Counted from the first letter of the stretch, positions 9,253 to 59,181 are shown. The stretch: 64,000 nucleotides of DNA from an uncultured Actinomycetota bacterium (GCA_963757295.1 CAVWQZ010000006.1:142390-206389); one strand, 5' to 3'. Numbers and translations are program-made. The notes: a model not told the origin generated them from the letters alone.

Positions 9253-9260
9253 GCCGCGCC

Positions 9261-10542: not shown

Positions 10543-10551
10543 CGTCGATGC

Positions 10552-12543: not shown

Positions 12544-12601
12544 CACACCAGACGGTACTGTCACCGGCGAGGTGCTCGCCCGGGCACTGCTCCGCGCGGG
12601 G

Positions 12602-36697: not shown

Positions 36698-36713
36698 GGG
36701 CAGAGAGGGCGGA

Positions 36714-38051: not shown

Positions 38052-38177
38052 GCGCGGCTCCAGCCTCGCGGTCTTCGCGGGGGCGGCGAAGGAGACTGGC
38101 GAGTGATCTCATGCTGCGTTCCTCACATCGAGTGGACGAGAGACCCACCGGGCAGACCCTAGGGCAGAGAGAGCCGA

Positions 38178-39511: not shown

Positions 39512-39569
39512 GGCGGCACCGGCCTCGCGGTCTTCGCGGGGCTGGCGAAGGAGACTGGCGAGTGCATCT

Positions 39570-42507: not shown

Positions 42508-42943
42508 TCAGCAGGGGCCCGGCGCGGGCCGGCCCTCCAGGCTGTCCATGTGGTAGTCGGCCGTCCCGATCGCCGTTGAGCTTGATGTGGTCGGCCTCGA
42601 GGCAGTAGCGGGTCGAGGTGGTGATGCCCGCGACCGGCAGCGACACCTCGACGTTCCCGCTCGCGTCACCCGACGCGTGGAAGGCGTACGGCGGGGTGAC
42701 ACCCGGCTGGATCGCACCCACCGGGAGATAGGTGCCGTGATCGTCGAAGAAGTTCTCCATGACCACCGCTGCGCTGCGGAGGTCCGAGACAGCGGCCGCG
42801 CGCCAGGCCTTCTCGCGCTGGTGCAGGAAGCTCGGGATGGCGATGCCGGCCAGGACGCCGATGATGATGACAACCACGAGCAGCTCGATCAGCGTGAAGC
42901 CGTCTTCACGCCATCGTTCGCTCATGAGTTGGTAACGCTTCAT
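42508..42943 (-). CDS. pilA3: Type IV (major-type) pilin paralog 3; C-terminal frame ambiguity near 42580
   Basis: MKRYQLMSERWREDGFTLIELLVVVIIIGVLAGIAIPSFLHQREKAWRAAAVSDLRSAAVVMENFFDDHGTY... Alternative-frame end ...YCLEADHIKL..TAIGTADYHMDSLEGRPAPGPC* is homologous to the pilA1 end AAVDYHLDITIGRPTDGRLLI*. Confidence 0.65.
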
Positions 42944-43056: not shown

Positions 43057-43461
43057 TCAGGGCAGGCGCCCGTCGTCGGGCGACCGATCGTGATGTCCAG
43101 GTGGTAGTCGACCGCGGCCGGCAGCTTGAGGTGGTTCGCGTTCAGGCAGTAGCCGGTGGTGGTCTGCGGTGGCGATCGTCAGGGTGACGTCGGAGGTGCC
43201 GGCGTCGTTACCGGACGACTTGAACAGCGCCGGAGTGGCACCGGCGTAGGTGCCGTTGTCGTCGAAGTACTCCTCCATCTTGGTCGCTGCGTTGCGCAGG
43301 TCGGAGATGGCGGCCTTCTTCCAGGCCTTCTCACGCTGGTTGAGGAACGTGGGGATGGCGATGGCGGCGAGAATGCCGATGATGATGATGACCACGAGGA
43401 GCTCGATCAGCGTGAATCCGCTGTCGCCTTCCTCGCGGGCCTTGCGGATGCGAGCGAGCAT
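43057..43461 (-). CDS. pilA2: Type IV major pilin, tandem copy 2 (identical to copy 1 for the first ~100 codons, then a 31-codon out-of-frame segment bounded by a +1 and a -1 indel)
   Basis: MLARIRKAREEGDSGFTLIELLVVIIIIGILAAIAIPTFLNQREKAWKKAAISDLRNAATKMEEYFDDNGTYAGATPALFKSSGNDAGTSDVTLTIAT, then ADHHRLLPEREPP...SPD, then DGRLP*. SD AAAGGACGGG before the ATG. Confidence 0.7.
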   Translation of the reverse strand: MLARIRKAREEGDSGFTLIELLVVIIIIGILAAIAIPTFLNQREKAWKKAAISDLRNAATKMEEYFDDNGTYAGATPALFKSSGNDAGTSDVTLTIATADHHRLLPEREPPQAAGRGRLPPGHHDRSPDDGRLP

Positions 43462-44500
43462 GTGCCCGTCCTTTCAGGACCGAACCGATGAGCCGCGCCG
43501 CCGGTCCCTCGCGGCACCCTTGTGGGGTGCCGGCCGAGGCAGCTGGGCTGACCACCCGTGGTGGCTCCCTGGCTTTGCGACCCCGTCTCGCGACGGGTGT
43601 GCCGTGTCTGGCCGGTGCAGCTCGTTGACATCAGAGTGTTCGGCCCCCCGCGGGGCCCGCTTGAGCGTCTGTCGGACCGACTTGGCGGCGCCACCCGGGC
43701 GGGCTAAAGCCAGAACGGCGGCCCAGCGGCCAGATGGCCGCCGGACCGCCGCAGGTGCAGACGTCAGATCAGCAGGCGCCCGTCGGTCGGGCGACCGATC
43801 GTGATGTCCAGGTGGTAGTCCACCGCGGCCGGCAGCTTGAGGTGGTTCGCGTTCAGGCAGTAGCCGGTGGTGGTCTGGGTGGCGATCGTCAGGGTGACGT
43901 CGGAGGTGCCGGCGTCGTTACCGGACGACTTGAACAGCGCCGGAGTGGCACCGGCGTAGGTGCCGTTGTCGTCGAAGTACTCCTCCATCTTGGTCGCTGC
44001 GTTGCGCAGGTCGGAGATGGCGGCCTTCTTCCAGGCCTTCTCACGCTGGTTGAGGAACGTGGGGATGGCGATGGCGGCGAGAATGCCGATGATGATGATG
44101 ACCACGAGGAGCTCGATCAGCGTGAATCCGCTGTCGCCTTCCTCGCGGGCCTTGCGGATGCGAGCGAGCATGTGCCCGTCCTTTCAGGACCGAACCGATG
44201 AGCCGCGCCGCCGGTCCCTCGCGGCACCCTTGTGGGGTGCCGGCCGAGGCAGCTGGGCTGACCACACCGTGGTGGCTCCCTGGCTTTGCGACCCCGTCTC
44301 GCGACGGGTGTGCCGTGTCTGGCCGGTGCAGCTCGTTGACATCAGAGTGTTCGGCCCCCCGCGGGGCCCGCTTGAGCGTCTGCCGGACCAAATCTGGCGG
44401 CGCCACCCGAGCGGGCTAAGCCGAACGGCGGCCCAGCGGCCAGATGGCCGCCGGACCGCCGCAGGTGCAGACGTCGCCGGTTCGGAGGGCGCGCTACTCG
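43090..44500. repeat. Tandem direct duplication, unit ~710 bp x2 (pilin CDS plus ~300-bp 5' leader), leaders >95% identical
   Basis: 43462-43763 and 44172-44493 align almost base for base. Both contain hairpins GGCACCC-TTGTG-GGGTGCC and CCCGTC-TCGC-GACGGG. Confidence 0.85.
43764..44171 (-). CDS. pilA1: Type IV major pilin, tandem copy 1 (intact, 135 aa)
   Basis: Same N-terminus with G/FTLIELLVV prepilin cleavage/methylation motif. ...TLTIATQTTTGYCLNANHLKLPAAVDYHLDITIGRPTDGRLLI*. Confidence 0.8.
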   Translation of the reverse strand: MLARIRKAREEGDSGFTLIELLVVIIIIGILAAIAIPTFLNQREKAWKKAAISDLRNAATKMEEYFDDNGTYAGATPALFKSSGNDAGTSDVTLTIATQTTTGYCLNANHLKLPAAVDYHLDITIGRPTDGRLLI

Positions 44501-45717
44501 ACCAGGTCGAAGATCTTGAAGATGGGCATGTAGAGCGCGATGATCATCGACCCGACGATGCCACCGAGGAAGGCGATCATCAGCGGCTCGAGCAGCGCCG
44601 TCAGGCTCTCGGTGGTCGCCTCGACCTCGGCGTCGTAGAACTCCGCGATCTTGCCGAGCATCGTGTCGAGCGCGCCGGTGTCCTCACCGACGGAGAGCAT
44701 CTGGACCACCATCGGCGGGAACACCGAGTGGTTGGCCAGGGGCCCGGCGAGCGTCTCGCCTCGCCGTACGCTCTCCTGCACGTCCCGCGTGGCGTGCGCG
44801 AGCACGACGTTGCCGGTGGTGTCGGCGACGATGTCCAGCGCCTGCAGGATCGGGACGCCGGCCTTGAGCATGGTGCCCAGGTTGCGGCAGAACCGGGTCA
44901 GCGCGACCTTCTGGAACAGGCCACCGAAGACGGGGATCTTCAGCTTCAGCGGGTCGAGGAAGTTGCGCACCCCGTCCTTGTGCTTGACCCGCTTCCACAC
45001 GAACAGGAAGACGATGAAGCCGACGAGGCCCAGCGGCGCCAGGATCTTCATCTTGTCGCTGAGGAACACCAGCACCCGCGTCGGGGCGGGCAGGGTGGCG
45101 CCGAGCTCCTCGAACATCCCGGCGAAGACCGGCACGATGAAGAGCAGCATGCCGGTGACGGCGAGCACGGCCATGATCAGCACGACGACCGGGTAGGTCA
45201 TGGCGGACTTGATCTTGCTGCGCAGCTTGACCTCGGACTCGTAGTTCGCCGCGACCTGCAGCAGCACCGTGTCGAGGAAGCCGCCGACCTCGCCGGCCCG
45301 GGTGAGGTTGACCATCAGGGGCGGGAAGACGTTGGGGTGCTTGGCCATCGCGTTGGACAGCGCGAGACCGGTCTCCACGTCCTTGCCGACCTCGCCGAGG
45401 ACCCGGCGAAGCTCCTTGTTCTCCGTCTGCTCGGCCAGGATCGTCAGCGAGCGCAGCATCGAGAGCCCGGCGTTGATCATGGTCGCGAACTGCCGCGACA
45501 TGACCGCGAGGTCCTTGAGCTTCACCTTCTTGCCGAAGCCCGGGATGCTGATCTCCTTCTTCATCCCGGCCTTGCTCTCGTTGATGCTCACGGGCGCGTA
45601 GCCCATGCTCTTGAGCTTGGTGGCAACCGCAGCCTGGGACTCCGCCTCCAGCTTGCCGGAGACGATCTTGCCCGAGCGGTCCCGGACCGAGTACTCGTAT
45701 GTCAGCGTCGCAGCCAT
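44494..45717 (-). CDS. pilC: Type IV pilus inner-membrane platform protein PilC (two T2SS-F domains)
   Basis: MAATLTYEYSVRDRSGKIVSGKLEAESQAAVATKLKSMGYAPVSI..., two repeats of the GspF-type domain. Intact 407 aa. SD GAGG upstream. Confidence 0.9.
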   Translation of the reverse strand: MAATLTYEYSVRDRSGKIVSGKLEAESQAAVATKLKSMGYAPVSINESKAGMKKEISIPGFGKKVKLKDLAVMSRQFATMINAGLSMLRSLTILAEQTENKELRRVLGEVGKDVETGLALSNAMAKHPNVFPPLMVNLTRAGEVGGFLDTVLLQVAANYESEVKLRSKIKSAMTYPVVVLIMAVLAVTGMLLFIVPVFAGMFEELGATLPAPTRVLVFLSDKMKILAPLGLVGFIVFLFVWKRVKHKDGVRNFLDPLKLKIPVFGGLFQKVALTRFCRNLGTMLKAGVPILQALDIVADTTGNVVLAHATRDVQESVRRGETLAGPLANHSVFPPMVVQMLSVGEDTGALDTMLGKIAEFYDAEVEATTESLTALLEPLMIAFLGGIVGSMIIALYMPIFKIFDLVE

Positions 45718-45728
45718 TGCCTTGCCTC

Positions 45729-46993
45729 TCAGCCTCGGCCAGACAGCCGGTTGAAGTCCTCGACGTGGTGGCACTTCTCGAGACCGGTCTCGTAGGTGAT
45801 CTTGCCCTTCTTGACAAGGTCTGCGAGGTGCTGGTCCATGGTGTGCATTCCGTGCTTCGCCCCGGCCTGCATGGCCGAGTAGATCTGGTGGGTCTTGCCT
45901 TCCCGGATGAGGTTGCGGATGGCCGGCGTGGCCACCAGCACCTCGGTTGCGACCACGCGGCCCTGACCGTCAGCGGTCCGGGCGAGCGTCTGGCAGACGA
46001 CGCCCTGGAGGGCGCCGGCGAGCTGGACCCGCACCTGCTGCTGCTGGTGCGGCGGGAAGACGTCGATGACGCGGTCGATCGTCTGCGCCGCGTCCTGACG
46101 TGTGCAGCGTGGCGAAGACGAGGTGGCCGGTCTCGGCCGCGGTCAGGGCGACCGAGATCGTCTCGAGGTCACGCATCTCGCCGACCAGGATGATGTCGGG
46201 GTCCTGGCGCAGCACGTGCTTCAGCGCGTTCTGGAAGGACCAGGTGTCCTCCCCCACCTCGCGCTGGTTGACGATGCAGGACTGGTGACGGTGGAGGAAC
46301 TCGATCGGGTCCTCGACGGTCATGATGTGGTCTTTGCGCGTCCGGTTGGCGAGGTCGACGATCGAGGCCAGCGTCGTGGACTTGCCGGAGCCGGTAGGAC
46401 CGGTGACGAGGACGAAGCCACGCGGCAGGCTCGCGAAGTTCGCCACCGACGGCGGTACGCCGAGGTCCTCGAGCTTGCGGATCTCGAACGGGATGATGCG
46501 GAAGGCAGCGCCGACCGCGTCCCGCTGGCGGTACATGTTGACGCGGAACCGTGCGCGGCCAGGGACGCTGTAGGCGAAGTCGAGCTCGAGGTTCTCCTCG
46601 AACTTCTCCCGCTGCTTCTGGGTCAGCGCCGCGTACATCACGCGCTGGATGACCGGCGGCGTCAGGATCGGCTGGTCCTCCAGGGCCATCAGCTCGCCGT
46701 TGAGGCGCAGTGACGGCCGGGCACCGGAGGTGAGGTGCAGGTCGGACGCGCCGCGGCTGAGGACGGTCTCCAGCAGGTCGTTCAGGGAGATGTCCTCGTC
46801 CTCGAGCGGCGGCTTCGGTCGACCCGCGCTGGTAGGCGGACTCGACGGCCTCGGGCTCGGCCACGAGGACCGTCTGCTCGGGGACCGGTACGACGTCGGC
46901 GTGCCACTCGGTCGAGGCCACCGGCAGCGGTGCCAGCGGCTCGGCAGCGACCTGGGTCGGGAAGGTCGGGAGGAAGGCCTCAGCGGGCGGCAT
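45729..46993 (-). CDS. pilT: Twitching-motility retraction ATPase PilT with an apparent ~65-aa Pro/Ala/Glu-rich N-terminal extension; frame shifts near 46040 and near 46800; no start codon at the canonical PilT N-terminus
   Basis: ...[38 protein letters not shown]..., Walker [17 protein letters not shown], ...LVFATLHTS, then C-part (ORF 45729..46034) [20 protein letters not shown]...[23 protein letters not shown]. Candidate ATG at 46993 overlaps the upstream small-ORF stop. Confidence 0.75.
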
Positions 46994-47350
46994 GGCGGAC
47001 GGCACGGGCGGCGGCACGGCTCGGACGGCCGGCGGCCTCGGCGACCGGCTCGGCGAGGTACTCCGGCGCAGGCGCAGGCGCGGGAGCCTGGGCCGGCGGG
47101 GCGTCGAGGTACTCGGGCTGCGGCGGGGCGGCGGCCTCGAGCGACGGCGGCGGCGGTCGGGCGCCGGCTCGTTCACGTAGGAGTAGTTCCACCCTCCCCC
47201 GGCGACCGTCTGCTCCTCTTCGGGCGCGAGGCCAGGACCGGGCACGAACGTGCTCGGCTCTTCCGGCTGCGCCGGCTGGAATCCGGACGTCTCCACCTGC
47301 TGACCCCTTTCGACGTACCGTGCGGTCGCACGGCACCCGAGCAGACCTGG
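46980..47350 (-). other. Coding potential for a small (~105-125 aa) acidic Pro/Ala/Glu-rich low-complexity protein between pilB and pilT (frame-shifted; could alternatively be part of a longer PilT N-extension)
   Basis: [46 protein letters not shown]..., then other-frame [45 protein letters not shown]...*. SD AAAGGGG before GTG 47296. Confidence 0.3.
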
Positions 47351-47450
47351 CTGTCGAGCCAGTTCTCTCCTGCGTGGCATCGGTCGAGCAGTCGGCCTGC
47401 TTGAGCGTCGGGCCCGACCTTGCCAAGCCTTTAGACGACGACCCGCAGGA

Positions 47451-49098
47451 TTTCGTCCAGCGAGGTGATCCCGTCGAGCACCTTGGCGAGGCCGTCGTGA
47501 GCGCAGGGTGACCATGCCCTCTTCGCGGGCCTGCTCGGCGATGGCGGCCGCCGAGGCGTGCTCCACGGCCATCCGCTCGATGGTCTCGCTCACCGGCATC
47601 ACCTCGTGCAGCGCGAGCCGGCCCTTGTAGCCGGTCTTCGAGCACGCGGAGCAGCCGATCGGCCGGAAGAGCGTTGGGGACCGGCTCACCGTCCTGCAGC
47701 GGGAAGCGGGACTGGACCAGCAGCTCGCGGGAGGGGGTGAACTCCTCCTTGCACTTGGCGCAGAGCCGGCGGGCGAGGCGCTGGGCCAGCACGCAGTCCA
47801 GGGCGGACCCGACCAGGAACGGCTCGATCCCCATCTCGATGAGCCGGGTGATCGAGGACGGCGCGTCGTTGGTGTGCAGGGTGGAGAGGACCAGGTGGCC
47901 CGTCAGCGCCGCTTCCACGGCGATCTGAGCCGTCTCGTGGTCGCGGATCTCACCGATCAGCACGATGTCGGGGTCCGAACGCAGGATCGAGCGCAGGGCC
48001 GAGGCGAACGTCAGTCCCGCCTTGATGTTCGTCTGGACCTGGTTGATGCCCGGCCAGGCGATACTCCACCGGGTCCTCGACCGTGATGACGTTGACCTCG
48101 GGCCGGCTGACGATGTTCAGGGTCGCGTACAACGTCGTGGACTTGCCGGAACCGGTCGGACCGGTGACCAGGATCATCCCGTAGGGCTTGATGAAGCTCT
48201 GGGAGTAGACCTCGTAGTTGTGCTCGGAGAAGCCGAGGTCGGCGAGGTCGAGCCGGGCGGTCGAGTTGTCCAGGATTCGCATGACGACCTTCTCGCCCCA
48301 CACGGTCGGCAGCGTCGCGACCCGCAGGTCGATCTTGCGGCCGTGCGCATTGACCGAGAGGCGGCCGTCCTGAGGGATCCGGCGCTCCGCGATGTTGATG
48401 TCGGCCATGATCTTCAGTCGGCTGATGACGCCCTGCTGGATCGCCTTCGGTGAGCGCATGATCTCGTGCAGTACGCCGTCGATGCGGAACCGCACGCGCA
48501 GGTCGGTCTCGGTCGGCTCCAGGTGGATGTCCGAGGCTCGGTCCTGGATCGCCTGCGTGATCAACAGGTTGACGTACTTGACGATCGGCGCGTCCTCGAC
48601 GATCTCCTTGACCTTGGAGAGGTCGTCCTCCTCCTCCTGCGCGTCCAGCGCCTGGGTGAGGTCGTCGAGGTCGGAGTCGGCGCGGTAGTAGCGGTCGATG
48701 GCCGCGGCGACGTCCGCCCGGGTCGCGACGACCGGCTTGACGTCCATGCCGGTCAGCGACCGGATGTCGTCGACGGCGAACACGTTGGCCGGGTCGGCCA
48801 TCGCGACGAGCAGCTTGCCGTCCTCGAAGCCGATCGGGATGGCCGCGTGGCGGCGGCACACCGGCCCGGGCACGCGCCCGATGGCTGAGCCGTCGACCGG
48901 GAAGTCGCTCAGGTCGACGAAGCGCAGGCCGATCTGGGTGGCCAGCGCGGCCACCAGCTGGGACTCGGTGAGCACGCCCTGCTCGATCAGCACGCGCCCG
49001 AGGGCCCGGCCGACCCGTTCTTGTTCCTCGTAGGCGATGGCGAGCTGGTCAGAGCTGACCAGTCCACCCTCCAGGAGGATGTCGCCGAGCTGTTTCAC
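47451..49098 (-). CDS. pilB: Type IV pilus assembly/extension ATPase PilB (GspE family with N-terminal GSPII_E_N domain); at least 3 frame shifts (near 48055, 47680, 47500)
   Basis: GTG start after [41 protein letters not shown]..., Walker [64 protein letters not shown], zinc motif CAKCKEEF...[12 protein letters not shown], end [27 protein letters not shown]. Confidence 0.85.
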
Positions 49099-50977
49099 GC
49101 ACCCTCTCCTGCCGTCGAAGCCACGTTGGCGCCTCTGTTCCATCGGGTGGATGCGGCCGATCCTGAAGACGCATCGGTGCTGCTCTGATCGAGGCGGCGC
49201 AGCGCGTCCTCGACCGCTGCGCGCGCGCCGTCCGGCCCGGTCGTTGCCAGGACAGCCCGCAGGCGCAGCAGGATCGCCCTGGCCTCCGCCGCTCGGCCGG
49301 CCGTCTCCAGCACGCCCGCCTGACCGAGCAGCAGCATGGGCAGGCGCTGGCTGGAGGCGTCGGCCACAGCAGCTGCCAGGGCCACGCCCGCGGCCGGGCG
49401 CCCGGTCACGACCAGGGCCTTCGCACGATCCATCTGCAGCCCGGGATTGTCGGTGGCGGCCCGCTCGGTGCACTCCAGGGCGGTGCGCAGGTCCGCCTGG
49501 TCGGTGCCGCGCAGCATCGACCGGCAGACCGAGGCCGCCGGCAGCCAGGAGAGGTGCCCGGAGGCGGGGACGACACTCGTCACCGGCTGCGCCCACAGCG
49601 GGACCTCGGCGGCGGAGGCTCGCAGGCCGGATGCGCGCACCGCGGCCGGCACCGACACCAGCAGGAGCGCGACGGCGACGACAGCGACAGCACGTGGCCA
49701 CACGCCGGCCGGCGCATCGGGGCGTTGCCGGGCGGGCACGACCAGCCCTGCCAGGATCGCGAGGAACGCGAGCAACGACGGGTAGATCCAGTCGAAGTCC
49801 ACCCCGGAGTGCAGGATCAGGCCGAGCATGGCCAGCGGGACGCCGATGGCCACGACTTCGTCGTCGCGGCGGCGGGAACGGGACATGAGAGCCCACAGCC
49901 CGGCGAGCAGTGGGACACCCGTCGCGAGCGCGAGGGCCGCCACCAGGGGTCCACCGCCGTCGGAGAAGGCCTGCAGATAGCCGTTGTGCACATGGGTCGC
50001 GGGCGCCTACCCCGACGGGCAGGCGCACCGGAGGCGCCGGCGAACGAGTCGAACCCCGCACCGGTGAGCGGGTGCTCGGTGCCCAGCTCAGTGGCAACCT
50101 TCCAGAACTCGAGCCGCGCTCGGCCGTTGCCCTCCACAGACTGCGCCGGCGCCGCGGGCCCTGCAAGGTGGCGAACGGGCCGCCGGACTCCTCCATCAGC
50201 AGCGGGCTGGCGAGGACAGGTGCGCCAGACCCAGAGCGACGGCGACCAGGGCGAGGGCGGCTACCCGCCCTCTGCTGTCGATGAAGGACAGCACGATCAC
50301 GACGAGCCAGACGACCAGGAAGGTGCCCAGCCCGGCGCGACTGCCGGCGAACAGCAGCCCCGCGAGGCACCAGGGCGCGGTCACCCAGCCGACGATGCGC
50401 AGAGCGCCGTGAGCGCGGACAGCCAGCACTCCGGCGAGGACCCCTGCCCCGACCATGAACGCAGAGAACTGGTTGTGCCAGTAGAAGGTTCCCGAGCATC
50501 AGGCGGTAGACGCTGCCGCCGCCCCACCACGGCACGTAGGACTGGTAGAACTGCTCGAGCCCGACCACGGCGAGGACACCGAGAAGGGCGTGCCGGCGCG
50601 AGCGCGTGGTGGCCCAGGACCCGGACCACGACAGCGAGCAGGCCGGCGTAGGCCAGGGTCGCGACCTCGTCCAGGCCGTCCCAGTGGGTCGGGGCCGTCA
50701 GGCAGACGACGATCGCCGCCAGCCCGGGCGTCACGGCGAGCAGAAGCTGCCAGGCGGGAAGCACCCGCCACGGCCGCGTCGCGAACAGCGCCGGCGCCAG
50801 GGCGACGAGGGCCAGCCCGAGGACCCACGGGTCGCGCCCACCCGAGCCGTGCGTGAGCGGAACGGCCCACGCGAGAAGGGCGAGGACGACGGTCGCGGTG
50901 GCGACGTGCCCCGCCGTCGTGGTCCGGGCGCGGTCGCCGTCGAGCCGCACGGGCGGCCGCGACTGAAGCAGCGTCAT
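49095..50977 (-). CDS. Polytopic membrane protein with Wzy_C / O-antigen-ligase-type domain and C-terminal TPR-like region (PglL/TfpO-like O-oligosaccharyltransferase candidate); at least 4 frame shifts
   Basis: Multiple TM segments (WVLGLALVALAPALFATRPW..., FLVVWLVVIVLSFIDSRG...). Signature H-N-G-Y-L-Q-A-F-S-D-G-G-G-P-L-V. TPR-like tail LRTALECTERAATDNPGLQMDRAKALVVTGRPAAGVALAAAVADAS. Stop at 49095 abuts the pilB GTG at 49098. Confidence 0.55.
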
Positions 50978-51198
50978 CTGCGAGTCATCGGCAACGCGAC
51001 ATTCACCCTGAAGGAGTAACGCTGCGCGCGGCGAGCAGCATGGCGACCTGCCCGATCGAGCGGGTCAGCGCCGAGTCGGCGGGCAGCACGGTCTCGCCCA
51101 GATCGCCGAACACCAGGTGCACGACGACGGTCGGGTCCGACCGGCGGCGCCGGCCGGGCAAGGCCTCGAGACCCCAGGGGCTGGCCACCGCCACCCGA

Positions 51199-51774
51199 TC
51201 AGGCGCGGACGGCTTCGGTCTCGACCTCGTCGAGAACCGCGTAGAGCAACGCCAGCAGGACGTTCTTGACCGACTCCTTGTCGGTGGCGTCGCAGGACAT
51301 GATCGCCACGTCGGCGGGGATCTCGAGGGTCTCGCGGACCCGCTCGGTCAGCGCGTGGTCGTCCGGCGCGGCCCGGTTGAGCGCCACGACGTACGGCACC
51401 CGGGCCATCCGCCGGAACGCCTCGAGGATCCCGCTCGCCTCGGCGATGGAGTCCTCACGCTCGGCGTCCACGAGCAGCAGGTAGCCGATCATGCCCTCGC
51501 CGAGGATCTCCCACATGAAGTCGAAGCGCTCCTGGCCCGGCGTGCCGAACAGGTAGAGCACGAGGTCGCGGTCGATCGTGATGCGACCGAAGTCCATCGC
51601 CACGGTCGTCTCGGCCTTGCGCGACCGGGTGCTGTCGGTGATCCCGCGCTCCGTGGAGAGCACCGTGATCTCGCTGATGGTGCGGATCAACGTGGTCTTG
51701 CCGGCCGAGAACGGCCCGGTGACGACCACCTTGACTGCCTGACCACCGCGACGGCGGTTGCGTGCTGACGCCAT
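51199..51774 (-). CDS. MglA/CvnD-like Ras-superfamily small GTPase (Roadblock-associated ATP/GTP-binding protein)
   Basis: VKVVVTGPFSAGKTTLIRTISEI...TTVAMDFGRITIDRDLVLYLFGTPGQERFDFMWEILGEGMIGYLLLVDAE...VVALNR. Intact 191 aa. Confidence 0.8.
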   Translation of the reverse strand: MASARNRRRGGQAVKVVVTGPFSAGKTTLIRTISEITVLSTERGITDSTRSRKAETTVAMDFGRITIDRDLVLYLFGTPGQERFDFMWEILGEGMIGYLLLVDAEREDSIAEASGILEAFRRMARVPYVVALNRAAPDDHALTERVRETLEIPADVAIMSCDATDKESVKNVLLALLYAVLDEVETEAVRA

Positions 51775-51777
51775 GGC

Positions 51778-52993
51778 CTAGAGCCCCCTGACCCCGGCGA
51801 TCAGCCGCAGCATCAGGCTGCGGTTGACCGACGGGTCTCGTTCGATGAGCGACGGCTGGGGTTCGAGCGCGGTGGCGCCGACGACGTCGCCGGAGCCTGC
51901 CCCACCCGACCCCCCTGGGGTTGCGTGCGGGACGGACCGGTTTGCGGCTGCGGGGCTGCCGTCGTCGAACTCGGCCTGACGGCGGGGCAGGAACGGCTCG
52001 GACCGCGGCGGTACGACGTCGCCGGGCACGTGCGCGCCGCCGAGCATCATCGGACCGTCGCCGGCCGATGCCTTCACCAGGTCGGGCTCGTCGGCGGACT
52101 CCGCCGGCGCGGCGGGCGCGTCCGCGGGGGCGTCGGCAGGCGGCGTCGTCCTGGTCGCCGGACCGGGCGGCGGGCGGCGACGCGGGCGCAGCAGCGGGGG
52201 ACGCGGCAGGCTTCTTGACGGGGGCGGCCGGGGAGACCTCGACCGGGCCGAGCAGCTCCTGACGTCGTACGACGACACTCACGTGGTCGTCGCCGTCCTC
52301 GCGGACCTCCAGCAGCGACCGGCTGACCAGGCCGGCGAGCGTCGACACCACGGCGTACCGGCCGCAGCCGGTGAGGTCGACGAGGTCGTTGACGCTGCGT
52401 CGACCGTCGATGAGGGCCAACAGCGCCCACTCGTCGCGGCTGATGTCGGGGTCGTCAGGGAGCACGACCGGCATGCTCAGGATCGCCGTCGGCGACGGGA
52501 CGACCTGGCTCACGGTCTCCCAGCTGGCCCGGCGCGCGTCGGCGTCGGCAACGACGGTCTCGGTCTGCACGCTCACACCGACGTCGTCGGGGTTGACCTC
52601 GTCCATCACGAAGGCGAACTCGCCGGTCTGCCACTGCAGCAGGTCGAAGACCGCGTCGACGGACTGGTCGCTCACGGCCTGGCGGAGCAGCTCGGCCTCG
52701 ACCGCGTTCGCCTCGAGCAGTGCCTTCACGACGCCGACGTCCTTGTCGTCGCGGGCGCGCTGCACGGCCTCGCCGAGCGACCCGTCGTCGACGGCCCCGC
52801 TGCCGATCAGGCGGCGGGCCAACGGCTGGCGGGAGGTGTCCGCGGACGCACCAGTGATCTGCCCGGCGGTGAAGAACACCACGCCGTCGCACCCGTCGCT
52901 GGACAGGTGCAGGCCACCGGTCTTCTTGGTGAAGCTCAGCAGCTGGAAGACGTCCGGCAGGCTGAAAGCGTCAAGGGACCCCTCGAGCTTCAT
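51778..52993 (-). CDS. PATAN/DUF4388-domain protein with Pro/Ala-rich linker and short conserved C-terminal segment; frame-shifted in the middle
   Basis: MKLEGSLDAFSLPDVFQLLSFTKKTGGLHLSSDGCDGVVFFTAGQITGASAD (DUF4388 pattern LxGxLxxFxLxDLLQLL...KTGxL), ...RDEWALLALIDGRRSVNDLVDLTGCGRYAVVSTLAGLVSRSLLEV, C-terminus ...DPSVNRSLMLRLIAGVRGL*. Confidence 0.6.
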
Positions 52994-53013
52994 GTCAGGT
53001 CCAGCTCGTGGTC

Positions 53014-53589
53014 TCAGCCGGGGTCGCGTTCTCCGGCTGGCCCCAGCCGTTCTTGGTCACGAACTGCAGCGGAGGCACGTCCTCGCTGTGGTCGTCGGTC
53101 TGCGTCGGTCTGGTCATCGGCCTGGTCGTCGGTCTCGGCGCCGGAGGCGTGCGCACCTCTGGCCGCGGGCACCAGGCTGGGCGCCGTCTCGACCCGGAGC
53201 GCGTCGGCCACGGAGGCTGCCGCGCGGCGGACCTCGAAGAGCATCAGACCGACCTTGGCGCCGCGCGAGGCGACGGCCACCAGCACGGCCTCGTCGTCGG
53301 CGGAGACCAGGAAGACGGTGCCGTTCTCGCCCTCGACGTAGATCTGCGAGAGCTCACCCCGGCCCAGACCCTCAGCGGCCCGCTCGCCCAGGGAGAGCAG
53401 GGCGGCGCTCATGGCGGCCACCCGGTCCTCGTCCATGCCGGCAGGCAGGGCCGCGGCCATCGCCAGACCGTCGAAGGACACCACTGCGGCGGCCTCGACC
53501 TCGGGCACCTGGCCGACCAGCTCGGCCAGAATCTGGTCCAGCTTCGCCGACCGGCTGACGCCGCTGGCGGCGTGGTTCGCTTCGCTCAT
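53014..53589 (-). CDS. Roadblock/LC7-domain protein (MglB/CvnB-like); C-terminus frame uncertain
   Basis: AKLDQILAELVGQVPEVEAAAVVSFDGLAMAAALPAGMDEDRVAAMSAALLSLGERAAEGLGRGELSQIYVEGENGTVFLVSADDEAVLVAVASRGAKVGLMLFEV. Confidence 0.75.
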   Translation of the reverse strand: MSEANHAASGVSRSAKLDQILAELVGQVPEVEAAAVVSFDGLAMAAALPAGMDEDRVAAMSAALLSLGERAAEGLGRGELSQIYVEGENGTVFLVSADDEAVLVAVASRGAKVGLMLFEVRRAAASVADALRVETAPSLVPAARGAHASGAETDDQADDQTDADRRPQRGRASAAVRDQERLGPAGERDPG

Positions 53590-53674
53590 TGCCCCACCTC
53601 GTGTGGACAGCGTCGGCCCAGGTGACCGCTTCCCTAGGCCCATCGGCGGGCAGCCGTCCGGGCTTGAGCGCGGG

Positions 53675-54501
53675 TCAGGGTGTGCGCAGCGCGCGTTCTC
53701 CCGCGGCCCGCAGCACGGGCACCAGTGCCGGTACGTCGACCGGCCGCCCGGTCATCAGCGCGACCTGCAGAACGGCCTGGTGAACCAGCAGGTCAAGGCC
53801 ACCGAGCACGTCAGCCCCGCGCTGCCGCCAGGCCGTCGCCAGCGGGGTGGGCCACGGGTCGTAGACGACGTCGAAGAGCATCCCGGCCAGCCGCGGCGGC
53901 AGGGTCTCGGCCAGCGCGTCCGTGCTGCCGGCCGGCGTCGTCGACACCACCAGGTCGGCGCCGGCGAGCGCATCCAGGCTGGTGGACGACCACTCCTCGA
54001 CGTGCGGCCGCACCCCGAGGCGCGCCGCCGCCTGCTCCAGGCCGGCTGCCCGGCCGCGGTCGCGCACCAGGACGGTCGGCGTGGACTCCCCCAGCTGCTG
54101 CAGGGCGGCCAGGGCCGCGGCGGCGGTCGCGCCCGCACCGAGGACGCAGGCCCAGCCCACCCCGTCGACCCCGCGCTCGCGCAGGGCGGCGACCATGCCG
54201 GGCACGTCGGTGTTCTCGCCCTGCCGGCCGTCGGGGCCGAGCAGGACCGTGTTGGCGCCGCCGACCGCACGGACCAGCTCGCTGGACCGGTCGAGCAGCG
54301 TCAGCACGGCCGCCTTCAGCGGCATCGTCAACGAGAGTCCGGCCCACGAGCCGTCCAGCCCGTCGAGGAAGCCCGCCAACCCGGCCGCGTCCACGTCGTA
54401 CGCGTCATAGGTCCACTCCGCGAGGCCGAGCTCGTCGTAGGCGGCCTGGTGGAGGACGGGGGAAAGCGAGTGGCGGACCGGCGAGCCGAGCACGGCTGCG
54501 C
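53675..54501 (-). CDS. aroE: Shikimate dehydrogenase
   Basis: GTG start overlapping the mltG stop (GTGA). [21 protein letters not shown]...SLTMPLK...VLGAGATAAAALAAL. Confidence 0.8.
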
Positions 54502-55619
54502 GGCACCTCACTGGTTGGACTTGAGCTCCTGCTTGAACCGCAGGAACTCCTGGTAGCTGCTGGTGAACTTCGTCTCGCCGCTCTCCGGGTCGACGGTGAC
54601 GAAGTACAGCCAGTCGCCGTCCGGCGGGTTGACCGCGGCCTCGAGCGCACGTCTCGCCGGGAGAGTTGATGGGCCCGGGCGGCAGGCCGGTGTTCTTGTA
54701 GGTGTTGTACGGCGAGTCGGTGCCGAGGTCCTCGAGGGTGACCAGCTTCTTGTCGGCCTTGAGCGCGTAGTTGACGGTGGAGTCGAACTGCAGCGGCATC
54801 CCCTGCGTCGAGCCGGTTGTAGACGACCCGGGCGACCTTGCCGAAGTCCTCGGCGTGGCGCGCCTCGGCCTCGACCAGGCTGGCGATGATGACGAGCTCG
54901 TACGGCGAGCGCTGGGTGCGCTCCACCCCGGTCGTCTCGGCGGCGTCGTGCGTACCTCGCCGAACAGCGCCTTGAGCACGTCCGGCGCGGCGGCGTTCGG
55001 CGGAACGTCGTAGGTCGCCGGGAACAGGAAGCCCTCGGCGTTCTTCTTCGCGTAGGCCGGCAGGCCCAGCGAGCGGGCGTCCTTGAGCGCCTTCTTGTAG
55101 TCGGCGAGCGGGAGCTCGGTGCTCTTGGCCAGCCGCTTGAGCGTCTCGTCGAGCCGGAGCCCTTCGGGCAGGACGACCTTGGCCTGGACCCGCGACTTGG
55201 GGTCGAGCAGCAGGGCCAGCGCCTCGCCGGCCTGCATCTTGCGCTTGAGCTGCGTAGAAGCCGGGCTGAAGACTCGAGGACCTGGGCTCCGCGTTGGCCG
55301 CCGCGAGGAACGCGTCGACGCTGGCGATCACGTCTTCCTTCTTCAGGGTCCGCCCGACCTCGGCGACGGTCTGCCCGGGGGTGACCTCGATCACGACCTC
55401 GCCCTCTCCGGGGCCGGGATAGTCGTCGGCGCTGGTGGAGAGGGCGTCGGTGAGCTTGGACCCGACGCCCTTGACCAGGGCATATCCCCCGGCCACGACC
55501 GCCAGGATCACCAGCAGGGAGATCACGACGGCGAGACCGCCCTTGCGGTCGCGCTTCTTCTTGCGCCGGCGCCGGCGCACCGGTCGATCCTCATCGGCCC
55601 AGACCGAGAGATCCGTCAT
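54498..55619 (-). CDS. mltG: Endolytic murein transglycosylase MltG (YceG family); at least 2 frame shifts
   Basis: N-terminal [21 protein letters not shown], ...[21 protein letters not shown]..., FLFPATYDV, ...[11 protein letters not shown], end ...[32 protein letters not shown]. Confidence 0.75.
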
Positions 55620-56101
55620 TCCTCCACCTTCGTGTCGTCCCCGGGTGTCGCGGCCTGCACCTGCCGTCCCGGCGCGATCCCGGTGGCTCGCTCCTCGTCG
55701 AGGGCGGTCTGCAAGATGATGACAGCAGCGGCCTGGTCGACAACGCTACGCCCCCGGCGGCTGTCCATCCCACTCGCCCGGAGGTCGCGCTGGGCTCCCA
55801 CGGTGGACAGCCGCTCGTCGACCAGCCGCACCGGCGTGGACCCGAGCGTGTCGGCCAGCCGCTGGGCGAAGGCGACGGCATCGTCCGCGGCGCGGCCCTC
55901 CCGGCCGGCCAGCGTGCGGGGCAGGCCGACCACCACCTCGACCGCCTCGCGCTCGGCGGCCAGGCGGGCCAGCTCGGCCAGGTCGCCGCGGCCCCGGCGC
56001 ACGGTCGCGACCGGGGTCGCGATCAGCCCCGCCGGGTCGCAGGACGCCACGCCGATCCGGACGGTGCCCACGTCGACCCCCAGCCGCACGCCCGCCCTCA
56101 T
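55616..56101 (-). CDS. ruvX: Putative pre-16S rRNA nuclease / Holliday-junction resolvase-like YqgF
   Basis: [36 protein letters not shown]...[26 protein letters not shown]. Confidence 0.85.
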
Positions 56102-56213
56102 GCGCTGATCATGCAGTTCCTGCGCACCATCGCCTCTCCCAACCACGATCATGCAGTCGTGGTTCTGCGGACTCCGCCAGGAACCACCGTTGCATGATCG
56201 CGGCGGGGTGGGG

Positions 56214-58894
56214 TCAAGAGGCGTTGGTGACGCGTTGGCCGACCTCGTGCTGGACCCGGGCCAGCGCCTCGTCGACCTTCGACGCGTCGGTCCCGCCGCC
56301 CTGGGCGACGTCGTCCTTGCCGCCGCCGCCACCACCGAGGACGCTCGCCGCGGCGCGCACCAGCTCGCCGGCCTTGACGCCCCACTCCCGGCCGCGGTCG
56401 TTGACCGCCACGACGACCACCGGCCGGTCGCCGGCGACCGTGATGCCGGCCACGACTGCCGGGCGGTCGGCCGGGATGCGGCCGCGCACATCCAGGACCA
56501 GCCGGCGCAGGTCGTCGGCCGCGGTGCCGTCAGGCACCCGGTGGGCCACGACGGCCACGCCGTAGACGTCGGTCGGGTTCGCGGCCAGGCTCGCCGCCGC
56601 CTCCAGCACCTGGGCGGACCGGACCCGCTCGAGGTCCTTCTCCGCCTCGCGCAGCCGCGCCGTCAGCGCGGCGACCCGCTCGGGCAGCTCCTCCCGGGGC
56701 ACCTTCAGCGCCTCCATGAGCTGCGCGACCAGCAGGTGCTCGCGGGCCAGGAACTGGTAGGCGTCCACGCCGACGAGGGCTTCCACCCGGCGTACACCTG
56801 CCCCGATCGAGGCCTCGCCGAGGATCTTGACCAGGCCGAGCTGGCCGGATCGGCGCGCGTGCGTGCCGCCGCAGAGCTCCCGGGCCCAGTCGCCGACGGA
56901 CACGACGCGGACGCGGTCGCCGTACTTCTCGCCGAACAGCGCCATCGCGCCGGACGCGCGGGCCTGCTCCTGGCTCATGATCTCGGCGTGCACGGCGAGG
57001 TCGGCGGCGAGCACCTCGTTGACCTGGTGCTCGACGTCGGACAGCACGGACGGTGGGACCGCTGACGTTGCCGAGAAGTCGAACCGGAACCGGCCCGGCG
57101 CGTTCTCCGAGCCGGCCTGGGTCGCGGTCTCGCCGAGAGCGTTGCGGAACGCCTGGTGCACGAGGTGGGTGGCGGTGTGGGCCCGGCTGATGGCCCGGCG
57201 GCGGTCGACGTCGACCTGACCGAGCGCTCCGACACCGGTCGTGACCTCGCCCCGGCTGACGCGGGCCCGGTGCACGACGACGCCCGGCATCGGGCACTGC
57301 ACGTCGAGGACCTCGACCAGGCCGCCGTCGGAGAGCTGGATCAGGCCCTGGTCGGCGAGCTGGCCGCCACTCTCGGCGTAGAACGGCGTGCGGTCCAGGA
57401 CGATCTCGATCTCGGCGCCCTCGGCCGCCGACGGGACGACGACGCCGTCGAGCAGGATGCCGCGCACCGTCGACTCGGTGACGACCTCGTCGTAGCCGGT
57501 GAACGAGATGGGCCCGGCGTCCATGATCGAGCTTGTAGGCGGACAGGTCGGCGTGGGAGCTGCGCCGCGACTTGGCGTCGGCCTTGGCCCGGTCGCGCTG
57601 CTCGCTCATGAGCCGCCGGAAACCGGGCTCGTCGACGCGCAGCCCCTGCTCGGCGGCCATCTCCAGGGTCAGGTCGATCGGGAACCCGTAGGTGTCGTGC
57701 AGCTTGAACGCCTCGTCACCGGCCAGCTCGGTGGCTCCGGTGCGCTTCGTCTCGGCCACGGCCGTGTCGAAGATCGTGGTGCCGGCGACCAGCGTGCGCC
57801 GGAACGCCTCCTCCTCGGCGTAGGCGATCGCACTGATGCGCGCGAAGTTCTCCGTCAGCTCCGGGTACGACGGGGCCATGGCCGCCATGCTGACCGGGAG
57901 CAGCTCGGGGAACACCGGTTCGTCGACGCCGAGCAGCCGCATCGAGCGGACGGAGCGACGGATGATCCGCCGCAGCACGTAGCCGCGGGCCTCGTTCGAC
58001 GGGGTGATGCCGTCGTTGATGAGCATCAGCGCGCTGCGGACGTGGTCGGCGACGATGCGCAGCCGGACGTCGTTCTCGTGGTCGGCGCCGTAGCGCTTGG
58101 CGGCCATCCCGGCCGCCCGGTCGAGCACCGGGAACACCTCGTCGATCTCGTAGAGGTTGTCCACGCCCTGCATCAGGTAGGCGACCCGCTCGAGCCCCAT
58201 CCCGGTGTCGATGTTGGGCTTCGGCAGCGGGGCACTGACGTCGAAGTCGACCTTGCTGCGGACCGCGCTGAGGCTCTCCTGCATGAACACGAGGTTCCAG
58301 ATCTCCAGGAACCTGTCCTCGTCCACGATCGGACCGCCGTCGGGGCCGTGCTCAGGCCCGCGGTCGATGTAGATCTCGCTGCACGGCCCGCCCGGGACCG
58401 GGGATGCCCATGTGCCAGTAGTTGTCCGCCAGGCCGCGCCGCTGGATGCGCTCCTCGGGCAGCCCGGCGACCTTGCGCCACAGCTGGTGGGCCTCGTCGT
58501 CACCCTCGAGCACCGTGACCCACACGGACTCCGGGTCGAAGCCGAGGAACCCCTCGGACTGCGAGCCGGTGACCAGCCGCCAGGCCAGCTCGATGGCGCC
58601 TTCCTTGAAGTAGTCGCCGAACGAGAAGTTGCCGTTCATCTGGAAGAACGTGCCGTGCCGGGTGGTCTTGCCGACCTCCTCGATGTCGAGGGTGCGCACG
58701 CACTTCTGCACGCTGGTGGCGCGCTTCCACGGTGGCTCGGCCTGGCCGAGCAGGTAGGGCTTGAACGGCACCATGCCGGCGTTGACGAACAGCAGGTTGG
58801 GATCGTCGGCGATCAAGGACGCGGACGGGACGACGGCGTGCTCGCTCTCGGAGAAGAACTGCAGCCACCGCCGCTTGATCTCGGCGGTCTCCAT
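56214..58894 (-). CDS. alaS: Alanine--tRNA ligase; at least 2 frame shifts (near 58400 and near 57530)
   Basis: [47 protein letters not shown]..., editing domain [12 protein letters not shown]-terminal DHHA1-like ...[19 protein letters not shown]. Confidence 0.9.
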
Positions 58895-59181
58895 CAGCGG
58901 GTGCTCCTCCGCGGGCTGGCCGGCCGCTCGATGAGGTCGGCGGCCTCCTCGGGCGAGAGGTCATGGCTGGCGTCGTCGATGCCCAGGGCGTCGCGCAGCT
59001 CGGCCTCGCGCTCGACCATGCCGGCCCGCACCTGGTCGGCGAAGTAGCGGATCGAGTCGCCGAGGCCCCCGGCGCTGTCGGCGAGCCCGGCCGGGGTGAA
59101 CGCCTGCGCGGTCTTGGTGATCTTGCGTACGACGAGGACCCCGACCGTCGCGCCCACGCCCATCCAGAAGAGCCGCCTCAC
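58894..59181 (-). CDS. Small conserved membrane-associated protein upstream of alaS
   Basis: [67 protein letters not shown]. Stop overlaps the alaS ATG. Confidence 0.4.

Follow-up and report, generated by a model that had tools for sequence, protein, structure and literature searches.

A Wzy_C-family membrane protein encoded in overlap with pilB is a candidate pilin O-oligosaccharyltransferase of actinobacterial type IVa pili

The gene directly 5′ of pilB in the window (the whole 64,000-nt stretch of DNA analysed here, from an uncultured Actinomycetota bacterium) encodes a Wzy_C-family membrane glycan ligase and candidate O-oligosaccharyltransferase. With a probability of roughly 0.6, its product serves the actinobacterial type IVa pilus as a dedicated accessory that transfers glycans to pilins. 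The evidence consists of its family, its fold, the conservation of its catalytic residues, its predicted topology and its linkage to type IV pilus (T4P) and glycan-assembly genes. Attachment of sugars to pilus subunits, the most likely role here, has so far been described mainly in Gram-negative bacteria for enzymes of the Wzy_C type. The initial annotation had proposed a pilin O-glycosylation enzyme: comparative genomics strongly backs a pilus-linked glycosylation role, but the pilin as acceptor is a part of the proposal that we infer.

The gene is real and lies on the minus strand, from 50977 down to 49095. As assembled it is not a single ORF but is split over three frames (0->1->2->1->0->1->2), and its assignment is based on the corrected translation, Pfam and identity to intact relatives. 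Frame correction was guided by a three-way DNA alignment with two related contigs, L001 and L002, both without the extra bases, which locates seven window-specific frameshifting insertions within 50005-50622 (8 nt in total, at 50622, 50493, 50225 (2 nt), 50161, 50147, 50031 and 50005). Removal of these nucleotides yields a protein of 624 aa with no internal stops, about 90% identical to the intact 624-aa proteins P0001-P0003 of relatives. The practical lesson is that frame correction of this window must precede any gene-level reading.

The corrected protein scores 58.6 bits against Pfam Wzy_C (PF04932; cutoff 31.7), bearing out the family proposed at the outset, and a 606-aa manual frame stitching, in which short third-frame segments are missing, scores 48.1 bits. 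The Wzy_C signature that had been noted, HNGYLQAFSDGGGPLV, is present from 49988 downwards and forms a catalytic-His motif (49950-49988, H328-N-G-Y-L-Q-A-F-S-D-G-G-G), identified by conservation and profile alignment. Across 24 homologues H328, G330, Q333, G338 and G339 never vary, and N329 hardly does; R213, R286 and H328 stay invariant down to ~28% identity, as do other loop residues. These three residues recall the catalytic Arg/Arg/His of Escherichia coli WaaL (R215/R288/H338) and of PglL (R224/R298/H349), for which residue roles have been described (PMC3643930).

An AF2 model of the relative P0001 (pLDDT 86.9, pTM 0.87) has WaaL (7tpg_B) as its best and only significant PDB match in Foldseek (E 8.6e-6, target-normalised TM-score 0.61 over 414 aligned columns); at the sequence level the family profile finds no WaaL match even at E≤10. 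The profile does match PDB chain 9rmk_A (‘Oligosaccharyltransferase’, 610 aa; E 0.0037), whose residue numbering agrees with Neisseria PglL; no published account of 9RMK was found in the open-access literature. In this alignment R213, R286 and H328 correspond to R224, R298 and H349 (PglL numbering), P301, G304 and G306 to P313, G316 and G318, and H387 to H400, with D391 a conservative change from E404. All of these positions are invariant or nearly so in the family. The invariant D393 stands in for PglL P406, and Q178 and N180 fall outside the aligned stretch. Sequence and model thus place the protein among the membrane enzymes of the WaaL/PglL (Wzy_C) superfamily, and its catalytic residues are conserved.

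Its typing within the superfamily is another matter. PglL_A (PF15864) and Wzy_C_2 (PF11846) give no match at E≤10 with the corrected protein or with homologues P0019 and P0025, so that a search with PglL profiles comes out negative. The only NCBIfam match lies far below threshold (PEP_O_lig_1, 19 bits vs 188), and there is therefore no curated equivalog. The initial likening to WaaL, PglL and TfpO holds for the superfamily, but there are no matches to the PglL domains, and TfpO-type features are absent in this clade.

Residues 1-450 (49620-50977) form a membrane core with 13 predicted TM helices, according to the AF2 model of P0001, Foldseek and loop charges. Residues ~255-337 are predicted to form an extracytoplasmic loop between TM9 and TM10, and K+R total 9 across the short cytoplasmic loops and 2 across the short loops outside. 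The helix count and this positive-inside pattern place the catalytic loop on the predicted outer face, where the motif had been expected, together with the tail; the N-terminus would be inside and the C-terminus outside. The tail (residues ~451-624, 49095-49619) is a predicted extracytoplasmic helical-repeat, TPR-like region, with helices at 458-599 in the model and the last ~25 residues disordered. Foldseek matches the model tail locally to the TPR structures 1a17, 4cgv and 4y6c (probability 1.00), and in the 40% identical homologue P0019 both TPR_19 (34.4 bits) and TPR_14 (26.9 bits) score above threshold. The TPR-like tail that had been claimed is thus visible as helical repeats in a relative's model and in homologue matches, but no Pfam TPR model reaches its threshold on the window protein's own tail (TPR_16, E=0.054, 14.4 bits vs 32.7). 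Many pilB-linked orthologues (460-495 aa) have no such tail.

The linkage to the pilus is seen first in the overlap with pilB. Direct reading of GAGGGTGCGTGAAACAGCTC places the TGA of the Wzy_C gene (49097-49095) over the pilB GTG (49098-49096), confirming the reported overlap of the stop and start codons, which together span the four nucleotides GTGA (49095-49098, minus strand). The pilus genes follow on the same strand. The extension ATPase gene pilB (47432-49098, 3′ end approximate) is frameshifted: tblastn with the intact 554-aa L002 PilB, which carries Pfam MshEN and T2SSE, returns three HSPs, each in a different frame, with 93-97% identity. A pilT-like ATPase gene, also frameshifted (45729-47113, 5′ end approximate), matches L002 PilT at 100% in pieces, and the platform protein gene pilC (44494-45717) matches at 99% over 407 aa; T2SSE and T2SSF, respectively, are found on the L002 orthologues. 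The major type IVa pilin gene is present in two tandem copies (43764-44171 and 43057-43461, together 43057-44171) that are 100% identical over 300 nt.

Among relatives, pilB lies directly 3′ of the Wzy_C gene in 43 of the 60 Actinomycetota loci with enough flank, and 24 of these 43 share the 4-nt overlap. At least three gene orders preserve the linkage to T4P genes: in L041 the Wzy_C gene is placed after pilM..pilO, and L069 has the order pilB-pilT-pilC-Wzy_C-pilin-pilin. In at least 22 loci a TM-DUF1972 glycosyltransferase gene sits directly 5′ of the Wzy_C gene. This pattern of pilB overlap, other T4P positions and adjoining glycosyltransferases supports a pilus-dedicated O-oligosaccharyltransferase. 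Clustered at 50% identity, the family falls into at least 268 groups. Its carriers include MAGs labelled Frankiales, Acidothermaceae, Sporichthyaceae, Motilibacteraceae and Mycobacteriales, as well as Nocardioides and Microbacteriaceae. Another carrier of the locus, Acidothermaceae bacterium B102 (AP028633.1), has a genome listed as complete and not labelled as a MAG.

Upstream, the picture differs from that first drawn, in which a ~220-nt non-coding region made the Wzy_C gene the first of its transcription unit. The gap (50978-51198) holds a conserved 63-codon ORF (51003-51194, minus strand; GC3 about 90%), 4 nt past the stop of a GTPase gene and 25 nt ahead of the Wzy_C ATG. It is 94-95% identical in L001-L003, with substitutions mainly at third codon positions, and is annotated as a gene on two related contigs; a Pfam scan of it matched no family. 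The corresponding spacers of L005, L008, L013, L023 and L049 are filled by ORFs sharing the motif VxLxFxDGxxxxL. Packed directly upstream on the same strand is a module (51199-53484) of Roadblock/LC7 (53017-53484, Pfam 53 bits), DUF4388/PatA_N (51781-52993, 82 bits) and a Ras-like GTPase (51199-51774, 72 bits), which is found ahead of Wzy_C and pilB in over 20 related loci and resembles MglB/MglA in domain types. Given the conserved ORF in the gap, the Wzy_C gene is probably not the first in its operon. A promoter and terminator scan of both strands over 50700-51400, uninformative for actinobacterial promoters, found nothing.

How might such an enzyme serve the pilus? Co-expressed with pilB via the 4-nt overlap, it would bind a flipped polyprenyl-diphosphate-linked oligosaccharide through the TM9-TM10 extracytoplasmic loop and R213, R286 and H328. 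The glycan could then be transferred en bloc onto a Ser/Thr hydroxyl of a membrane-anchored pilin, ahead of PilB-driven assembly, while the outside-facing TPR-like tail may dock the protein acceptor. The likely acceptor is the major pilin. A tblastn search with the cassette proteins of L014 finds no glycan-assembly genes in the 64-kb window. In this clade the donor would have to come from another part of the genome; sister clades have assembly genes adjoining the Wzy_C gene. Several observations speak against a pilus-dedicated pilin transferase: the unmatched PglL domain models, a major pilin ending in Cys, pilin genes ~5 kb downstream of the Wzy_C gene (pilB being its immediate neighbour), the lack of glycan-assembly genes in the window, a Nocardioides-type copy away from pilB, the absence of the tail in many pilB-linked orthologues and the frameshifts in the window copy.

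The pilins themselves bear on a second reading, a general PglL-like protein O-oligosaccharyltransferase for which pilin would be one of many substrates or none, its place among T4P genes reflecting ancestry or co-regulation. The mature major pilin of the window clade ends in ...GRPTTGAC, the last residue being Cys and not Ser or Thr. The C-termini of related loci vary (C, CT, CS, CP, CSF), and a C-terminal Ser/Thr acceptor as in the TfpO rule was discarded, with no consistent rule across more than 30 major pilins. A general enzyme would also account for the Nocardioides-type subclade, which is nested in the pilB-linked clade: there a ~450-aa form adjoins fumC and pilB is absent within 10 kb, showing that the enzyme can be retained away from T4P genes. 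The architecture is PglL-like, a 12-TM core being joined by a 13th TM helix and a helical/TPR domain outside the membrane, and among solved structures chain 9rmk, with its PglL numbering, is nearest in sequence. As in Neisseria PglL, which glycosylates pilin among other proteins, a Wzy_C core with aligned R/R/H, P-x2-G-x-G and H-x3-[DE] motifs and a 13th TM helix is followed by an extracytoplasmic C-terminal domain, at a length of about 610-624 aa. TPR motifs are known in the C-termini of the Wzy_C O-OTases WsfB and PglL (PMC2943079). However, the sequence relationship to PglL, from the family profile, is weak (E 0.0037), the PglL_A and Wzy_C_2 models give no match, P406 is replaced by an invariant Asp, and the host is a monoderm actinobacterium rather than a proteobacterium. 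Further, pglL is unlinked to pilus genes, and general enzymes are usually unlinked to substrate or pilus genes (PMC12645811), whereas here T4P linkage spans at least three gene orders and the pilB overlap is widespread. We consider a general enzyme unlikely.

Dedicated pilin modifiers offer further comparisons. Like TfpO/PilO (Pseudomonas aeruginosa, Acinetobacter) and TfpM (Moraxellaceae), the protein is a Wzy_C enzyme encoded in a T4P locus and would use donors from elsewhere, a likeness at the level of description; TfpO and TfpM are absent from the solved-structure matches of the family profile. TfpO is short and tail-less, and the short orthologues (~460-495 aa) resemble it, while the window protein bears the extra TPR-like tail. 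TfpO and TfpM lack PglL_A and Wzy_C_2, and pilin-specific O-OTases are typically encoded beside their substrates (PMC12645811). Theirs lie directly 3′ of pilA and modify a C-terminal Ser/Thr, whereas the present gene is 5′ of pilB and the pilin ends in Cys; pilin adjacency is found only in the distant L069. TfpW, the arabinosyltransferase/OTase of P. aeruginosa group IV pilin, has a periplasmic C-terminal TPR domain with presumed protein contacts (bioRxiv 10.1101/2020.04.19.049825). It is likewise a multi-TM pilin modifier in a pilus locus with a large C-terminal TPR domain, but it has a GT-C/ArnT-like fold, uses monophosphate-linked D-Araf donors and lies outside the Wzy_C superfamily.

Alternatively, the protein could polymerise glycans in the manner of Wzy, or ligate a secreted or cell-wall glycopolymer needed by the pilus, with a glycan, lipid or peptidoglycan as acceptor. 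Polymerases too fall under Pfam Wzy_C, and glycan cassettes verified in three loci (full, with PGT and Wzx, in L014 and L069; partial in L020) hold the Wzy_C protein as sole candidate polymerase. L014 has the order GTPase, PGT (Bac_transf, 218 bits), Wzx, methyltransferase, GT4, GT2, GT2, TM-DUF1972 glycosyltransferase, Wzy_C, pilB. In L069 the pilins are followed by a methyltransferase and a GT2 on the opposite strand, then PGT, GT4/DUF1972 with Wzx, and GT2. The two Wzy_C paralogues that stand in tandem in L020 could represent a polymerase and a ligase. A functional link between EPS and T4P is known from Myxococcus, with EPS as pilus substrate (PMC7484181). Against this, no Wzz/PCP chain-length regulator was among the hits when every ORF from the GTPase gene to the Wzy_C gene of L014 was scanned. 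Wzy polymerases are not known to have the invariant His in HN..LQ and the two Arg residues. That signature is the one of the ligases and OTases WaaL and PglL (PMC3643930). The window clade and many others keep the gene with pilB in the absence of glycan genes, a pattern more readily explained by a transferase supplied with donors from elsewhere than by a polymerase. This reading appears improbable to us.

The same cassettes invite comparison with the S-layer O-OTases WsaB and WsfB of Geobacillus and Paenibacillus, which are also monoderm Wzy_C enzymes, WsfB having a C-terminal TPR motif. These are encoded alongside PGT, glycosyltransferase and transporter genes (PMC2943079), a content that the L014, L020 and L069 loci resemble. 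They differ in acceptor (an S-layer protein), in their Firmicutes hosts and in having no link to a pilus locus. WaaL shares the same catalytic Arg/Arg/His arrangement, but its 12 TM helices are not followed by a tail, and it uses the lipid A-core of LPS as acceptor. Actinomycetota are monoderm or mycolate bacteria without LPS. Because the close relatives are all Actinomycetota, identity as a WaaL O-antigen ligase proper is implausible.

In other T4P systems, pilotins and assembly factors include TPR proteins. A non-catalytic role in pilus structure or assembly, with the tail as a scaffold through the cell wall and the Wzy_C fold as a mere membrane anchor, would accord with this and with the conserved translational coupling to pilB, suggestive of co-assembly in fixed proportion, but is made very unlikely by the invariance of the catalytic and other loop residues in 24 homologues down to ~28% identity, by the dispensability of the tail in many pilB-linked orthologues and by nearby glycosyltransferase, PGT and flippase genes, which point to enzymatic use of lipid-linked glycans. 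The frameshifts, finally, could mean that the Wzy_C gene and its pil neighbours are true pseudogenes of a decaying pilus locus, given seven insertions in 620 bp against a local average of ~1.4 per kb and the frameshifted pilB and pilT; this is highly improbable and was rejected as the main explanation, since window-specific insertions of the same 1-2-nt kind, 23 over 17 kb (44-61 kb), also occur in the alaS and mltG regions, four lie within 360 bp at 59785-60144, and the related contigs have private short indels of their own (71 in L001, 17 in L002) typical of long-read metagenome assemblies. The insertions in the gene mostly lengthen G or C runs, stop-creating substitutions number zero and identity to intact orthologues is ~90%. 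As similar insertions strike nearby housekeeping genes, the frameshifts are most likely long-read assembly errors.

The four classes of Wzy_C-type O-OTases (TfpO, TfpM, PglS and PglL) are exemplified solely by Gram-negative species in a 2025 review (PMC12645811). In the open-access literature searched, the only monoderm representatives found are the S-layer enzymes WsaB and WsfB, and no paper links a Wzy_C/O-antigen-ligase gene to actinobacterial T4P, an absence that is not proof but agrees with the initial statement that such an enzyme has not been characterised in Actinobacteria. More speculatively, and less likely than not, the gene may reflect an ancestral machine-embedded O-glycosylation of type IVa pili in monoderm Actinomycetota, in which a PglL-like transferase, encoded 3′ of the Roadblock/DUF4388/Ras-like GTPase module and made in fixed proportion with PilB by way of the conserved overlap, would be needed for assembly or passage through the thick wall, not for decoration alone. 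To our knowledge, the characterised route of protein O-glycosylation in Actinomycetota is Pmt-type O-mannosylation; the ancestral system, if true, would give the phylum a first pathway of Wzy_C-type protein O-glycosylation, working en bloc from a lipid-linked donor. If the pilus-locus-embedded family is indeed one of pilin transferases, it would add a phylum and an envelope type to the known range of en bloc protein O-glycosylation, open a way into the actinobacterial T4aP, which have hardly been studied, and supply new O-OTases for glycoengineering in short and long (TPR-tailed) forms with varied glycan cassettes.

The Wzy_C gene upstream of pilB (50977 to 49095, minus strand) contains no single open reading frame, and its membrane-protein segments are spread over all three frames. 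DNA alignment with two related metagenome contigs, L001 (96.7% nucleotide identity) and L002 (89%), reveals seven insertions private to the window and absent from both relatives, at 50622, 50493, 50225 (2 nt), 50161, 50147, 50031 and 50005. They total 8 nt, and most extend a G or C run. Removal of the eight bases leaves 1875 nt that encode an uninterrupted 624-aa protein, with intact orthologues of 621-625 aa in five relatives (80-90% identity). The overlap with pilB described in the initial annotation is exact (...GGT GCG TGA closing the Wzy_C gene, GTG AAA CAG opening pilB).

The corrected protein retains the family assignment made from the raw sequence, scoring 58.6 bits against the Pfam Wzy_C model (cutoff 31.7), with no other significant Pfam domain and no NCBIfam match above threshold. 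In the structure of a close orthologue, P0001, modelled from a 24-sequence alignment (pLDDT 86.9, pTM 0.87), there are 13 long helices of hydrophobic character; residues 255-337 form a loop with helical content, and residues 458-599 a tail made up entirely of helices. The sole significant Foldseek match of this model in the PDB is the O-antigen ligase WaaL (7tpg_B, E 8.6e-6, target-normalised TM-score 0.61). The tail had been called TPR-like. Its model gives local Foldseek matches to TPR domains and a homologue at 40% identity passes Pfam TPR_19 and TPR_14, but the window protein's own tail stays below threshold (TPR_16, E 0.054), so that “TPR-like” is a fair label. The short loops carry 9 K+R inside versus 2 outside, fitting the positive-inside rule for an N-in, C-out topology; the catalytic loop with its motif, as expected, and the tail are therefore both predicted to lie outside the membrane.

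Searched against PDB sequences, the family profile detects 9rmk_A, a 610-aa protein deposited as “Oligosaccharyltransferase” (E 0.0037); WaaL goes undetected at the sequence level, even at E<=10. Counted in the alignment, 9rmk carries R224, R298, P313, G316, G318, H349, H400, E404 and P406, exactly the positions listed for Neisseria PglL (PMC3643930). The pairs are R213=R224, R286=R298, P301=P313, G304=G316, G306=G318, H328=H349, H387=H400 and D391=E404, while D393 stands in place of P406. All of these family positions, D393 included, are invariant or nearly so, and the motif H-N-x2-L-Q-x3-[DE]-x-G is real and common to the family and PglL. A purely structural role for the Wzy_C protein, set against this retention of ligase and oligosaccharyltransferase residues, is very improbable. 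Membership of a named class is another matter: PglL_A and Wzy_C_2, given as Pfam markers of the PglL and PglS classes (PMC12645811), do not match the corrected protein.

How closely is the gene tied to the pilus? In a profile search (E<=1e-30) the family comprises at least 268 clusters at 50% identity. Screening a single genome for each species gave 74 loci, whose neighbourhoods were then probed with intact L002 proteins. Nearly all belong to Actinomycetota, the hosts being labelled as MAGs of Frankiales, Frankiaceae, Acidothermaceae, Sporichthyaceae, Motilibacteraceae, Mycobacteriales and Microbacteriaceae, together with Nocardioides. In 43 loci pilB lies immediately downstream on the same strand, with the 4-nt overlap of the window in 24 of the 43; upstream of pilB both long forms with a tail (600-690 aa) and short forms without one (440-495 aa) occur. 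Another 17 actinobacterial loci with enough flank have no pilB directly downstream, yet three of them still place the gene within a type IV pilus (T4P) locus: L041, from a Microbacteriaceae MAG, where it follows pilM..pilO; L055, with T4P genes in the locus; and L069, from a deep-branching MAG, with the order pilB-pilT-pilC-Wzy_C-pilin-pilin. Neighbour-joining places the pilB-linked genes together in one large clade, and nested inside it is a Nocardioides-type group of tail-less, ~450-aa versions adjoining fumC. These lie outside a pilus locus (L006, L009, L015, L019, L029, L035, L037, L040), with no pilB within 10 kb of the Wzy_C gene. In L009 the gene sits beside fumarate hydratase genes, and L040 has a similar small neighbouring gene. 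Loci of this kind would suit a general O-oligosaccharyltransferase (O-OTase) without dedication to pilins, a reading that we consider unlikely; linkage to T4P genes is kept over three gene orders, even with glycan genes elsewhere.

In several lineages the neighbouring genes cover the complete synthesis and flipping of a lipid-linked oligosaccharide. In locus L014 a glycan-assembly cassette fills all of the space from the GTPase gene to the Wzy_C gene. Its products are a phosphoglycosyltransferase (PGT; Bac_transf, 218 bits), further glycosyltransferases (one GT4, two GT2 and one with DUF1972), a methyltransferase and a Wzx-type flippase. In L069 the pilins are followed by opposite-strand methyltransferase and double-GT2 genes, then a Bac_transf PGT (213 bits), a stretch of GT4/DUF1972 and Wzx-type flippase genes, and a GT2. 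At least 22 pilB-linked loci carry, directly upstream of the Wzy_C gene, a 650-aa protein whose N-terminal TM region weakly resembles the L014 PGT (27-30%) and is fused to a DUF1972/GT4 glycosyltransferase; these proteins (L010-L065, at ~7900-9900 in locus coordinates) are 49-68% identical to the L014 copy. The window has no cassette homologue anywhere in its 64 kb, and its clade is without the cassette. The record of Acidothermaceae bacterium B102 (L020, AP028633.1), given as a complete genome, has two tandem Wzy_C genes (10001-12909) followed by pilB; ahead of them lie glycosyltransferase genes and those for a Wzx-type flippase and a TM-DUF1972 glycosyltransferase. The two Wzy_C genes may represent a polymerase and a transferase. 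That the window protein instead polymerises or ligates a polysaccharide associated with the pilus is rather improbable; the L014 cassette shows no chain-length regulator family among its matches.

A true pseudogene is most unlikely. In the 17 kb common to the window, L001 and L002, 23 short insertions but only one deletion are private to the window, and such insertions (1-2 nt) fragment the alaS region, mltG, pilB and pilT besides the Wzy_C gene (44000-60900). Four cluster in a 360-bp part of the alaS region; examples outside the Wzy_C gene are those at 60144, 59970, 59933, 59785, 58397, 57531, 55251, 54960, 54949, 54806, 54652, 53674, 48051, 47498, 46807 and 46099. The relatives have private short indels of their own (71 events in L001, 17 in L002), and many of the closest genome matches are MAG contigs. 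This shared pattern points to error-prone long-read metagenome assembly rather than decay of a single gene; the window has the look of long-read assembly left unpolished, and none of its ORF calls should be read before the frame is corrected.

The region upstream, initially taken as non-coding and as marking the start of a transcription unit, contains a conserved ORF. The 221 nt between the GTPase stop (51199) and the Wzy_C ATG (50977) hold a 63-codon minus-strand ORF (51003-51194) with about 90% GC3, which is also called on both related contigs. It is 94-95% identical in three relatives, with substitutions mostly at third codon positions, and the motif VxLxFxDGxxxxL is common to ORFs in the same spacer of the distant loci L005, L008, L013, L023 and L049; no Pfam family matches it. 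Directly upstream of the pilus genes lies a minus-strand module of Roadblock/LC7, DUF4388/PatA_N and Ras-like GTPase genes (51199-53484); counted upstream from the GTPase, the gaps between them are 6 and 23 nt. From the GTPase, 4 nt lead to the small ORF and 25 nt to Wzy_C, which overlaps pilB by 4 nt. Given this tight packing, the Wzy_C gene is unlikely to be first in its unit. More than 20 actinobacterial loci show this module in synteny with the Wzy_C-pilB pair. Its domain types are like those of MglB/MglA, and it may regulate the pilus.

The whole type IVa pilus locus (~27500-61600, minus strand) apparently lies between aroE and aroC, within a housekeeping run rarA-alaS-ruvX-mltG-aroE ... 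aroC-aroB-efp. Along it the apparent order is the Roadblock gene, pilB/T/C, the pilins, pilD and pilMNO. Apart from the genes between pilB and the pilins and the upstream module, which was checked against Pfam, the names rest on reading ORF translations by eye. Two tandem copies of the major pilin gene, 710 nt apart, are 100% identical over 300 nt (43057-44177, minus strand), and a third N-terminal pilin segment, 80% identical, lies at 42729-42902. Minor-pilin-like genes are duplicated in tandem at 36687-38052 and 38151-39512 (period ~1.46 kb, 96-98% identity), both copies beginning MITVLLMAALLTAFAVAAIG...; the duplication could be real or an assembly artefact.

The retained ligase/OTase residues, the predicted outward face, the glycan-assembly cassettes and the T4P linkage together make a pilus-dedicated O-OTase the simplest reading of the Wzy_C protein. 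Such an enzyme would transfer a polyprenyl-PP-linked glycan to membrane-anchored pilins ahead of pilus assembly by PilB, and the TPR-like tail would be an optional module for docking the acceptor. Precedents exist in WsfB and PglL, Wzy_C O-OTases with C-terminal TPR motifs (PMC2943079), and in TfpW, a TPR-bearing pilin OTase (bioRxiv 10.1101/2020.04.19.049825); as a rule, genes for pilin-specific O-OTases sit close to those of their substrates (PMC12645811). The C-terminal-Ser rule of TfpO fails here: the clade's major pilin ends ...GRPTTGAC and C-termini differ among lineages. Pilin and protein O-OTases are nearest in proposed function, PglL in architecture (core, 13th TM helix, outside helical domain), and TfpO and TfpM in genomic logic, being embedded in pilus loci and without PglL_A and Wzy_C_2. 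Because the defining tests of each named class failed, the protein is filed under none. In the searchable literature the named classes are from Gram-negative bacteria only, besides S-layer enzymes in Firmicutes (PMC12645811, PMC2943079), and no such O-OTase was found for Actinobacteria. Acidothermaceae bacterium B102, with its tandem Wzy_C genes, is a candidate experimental system.
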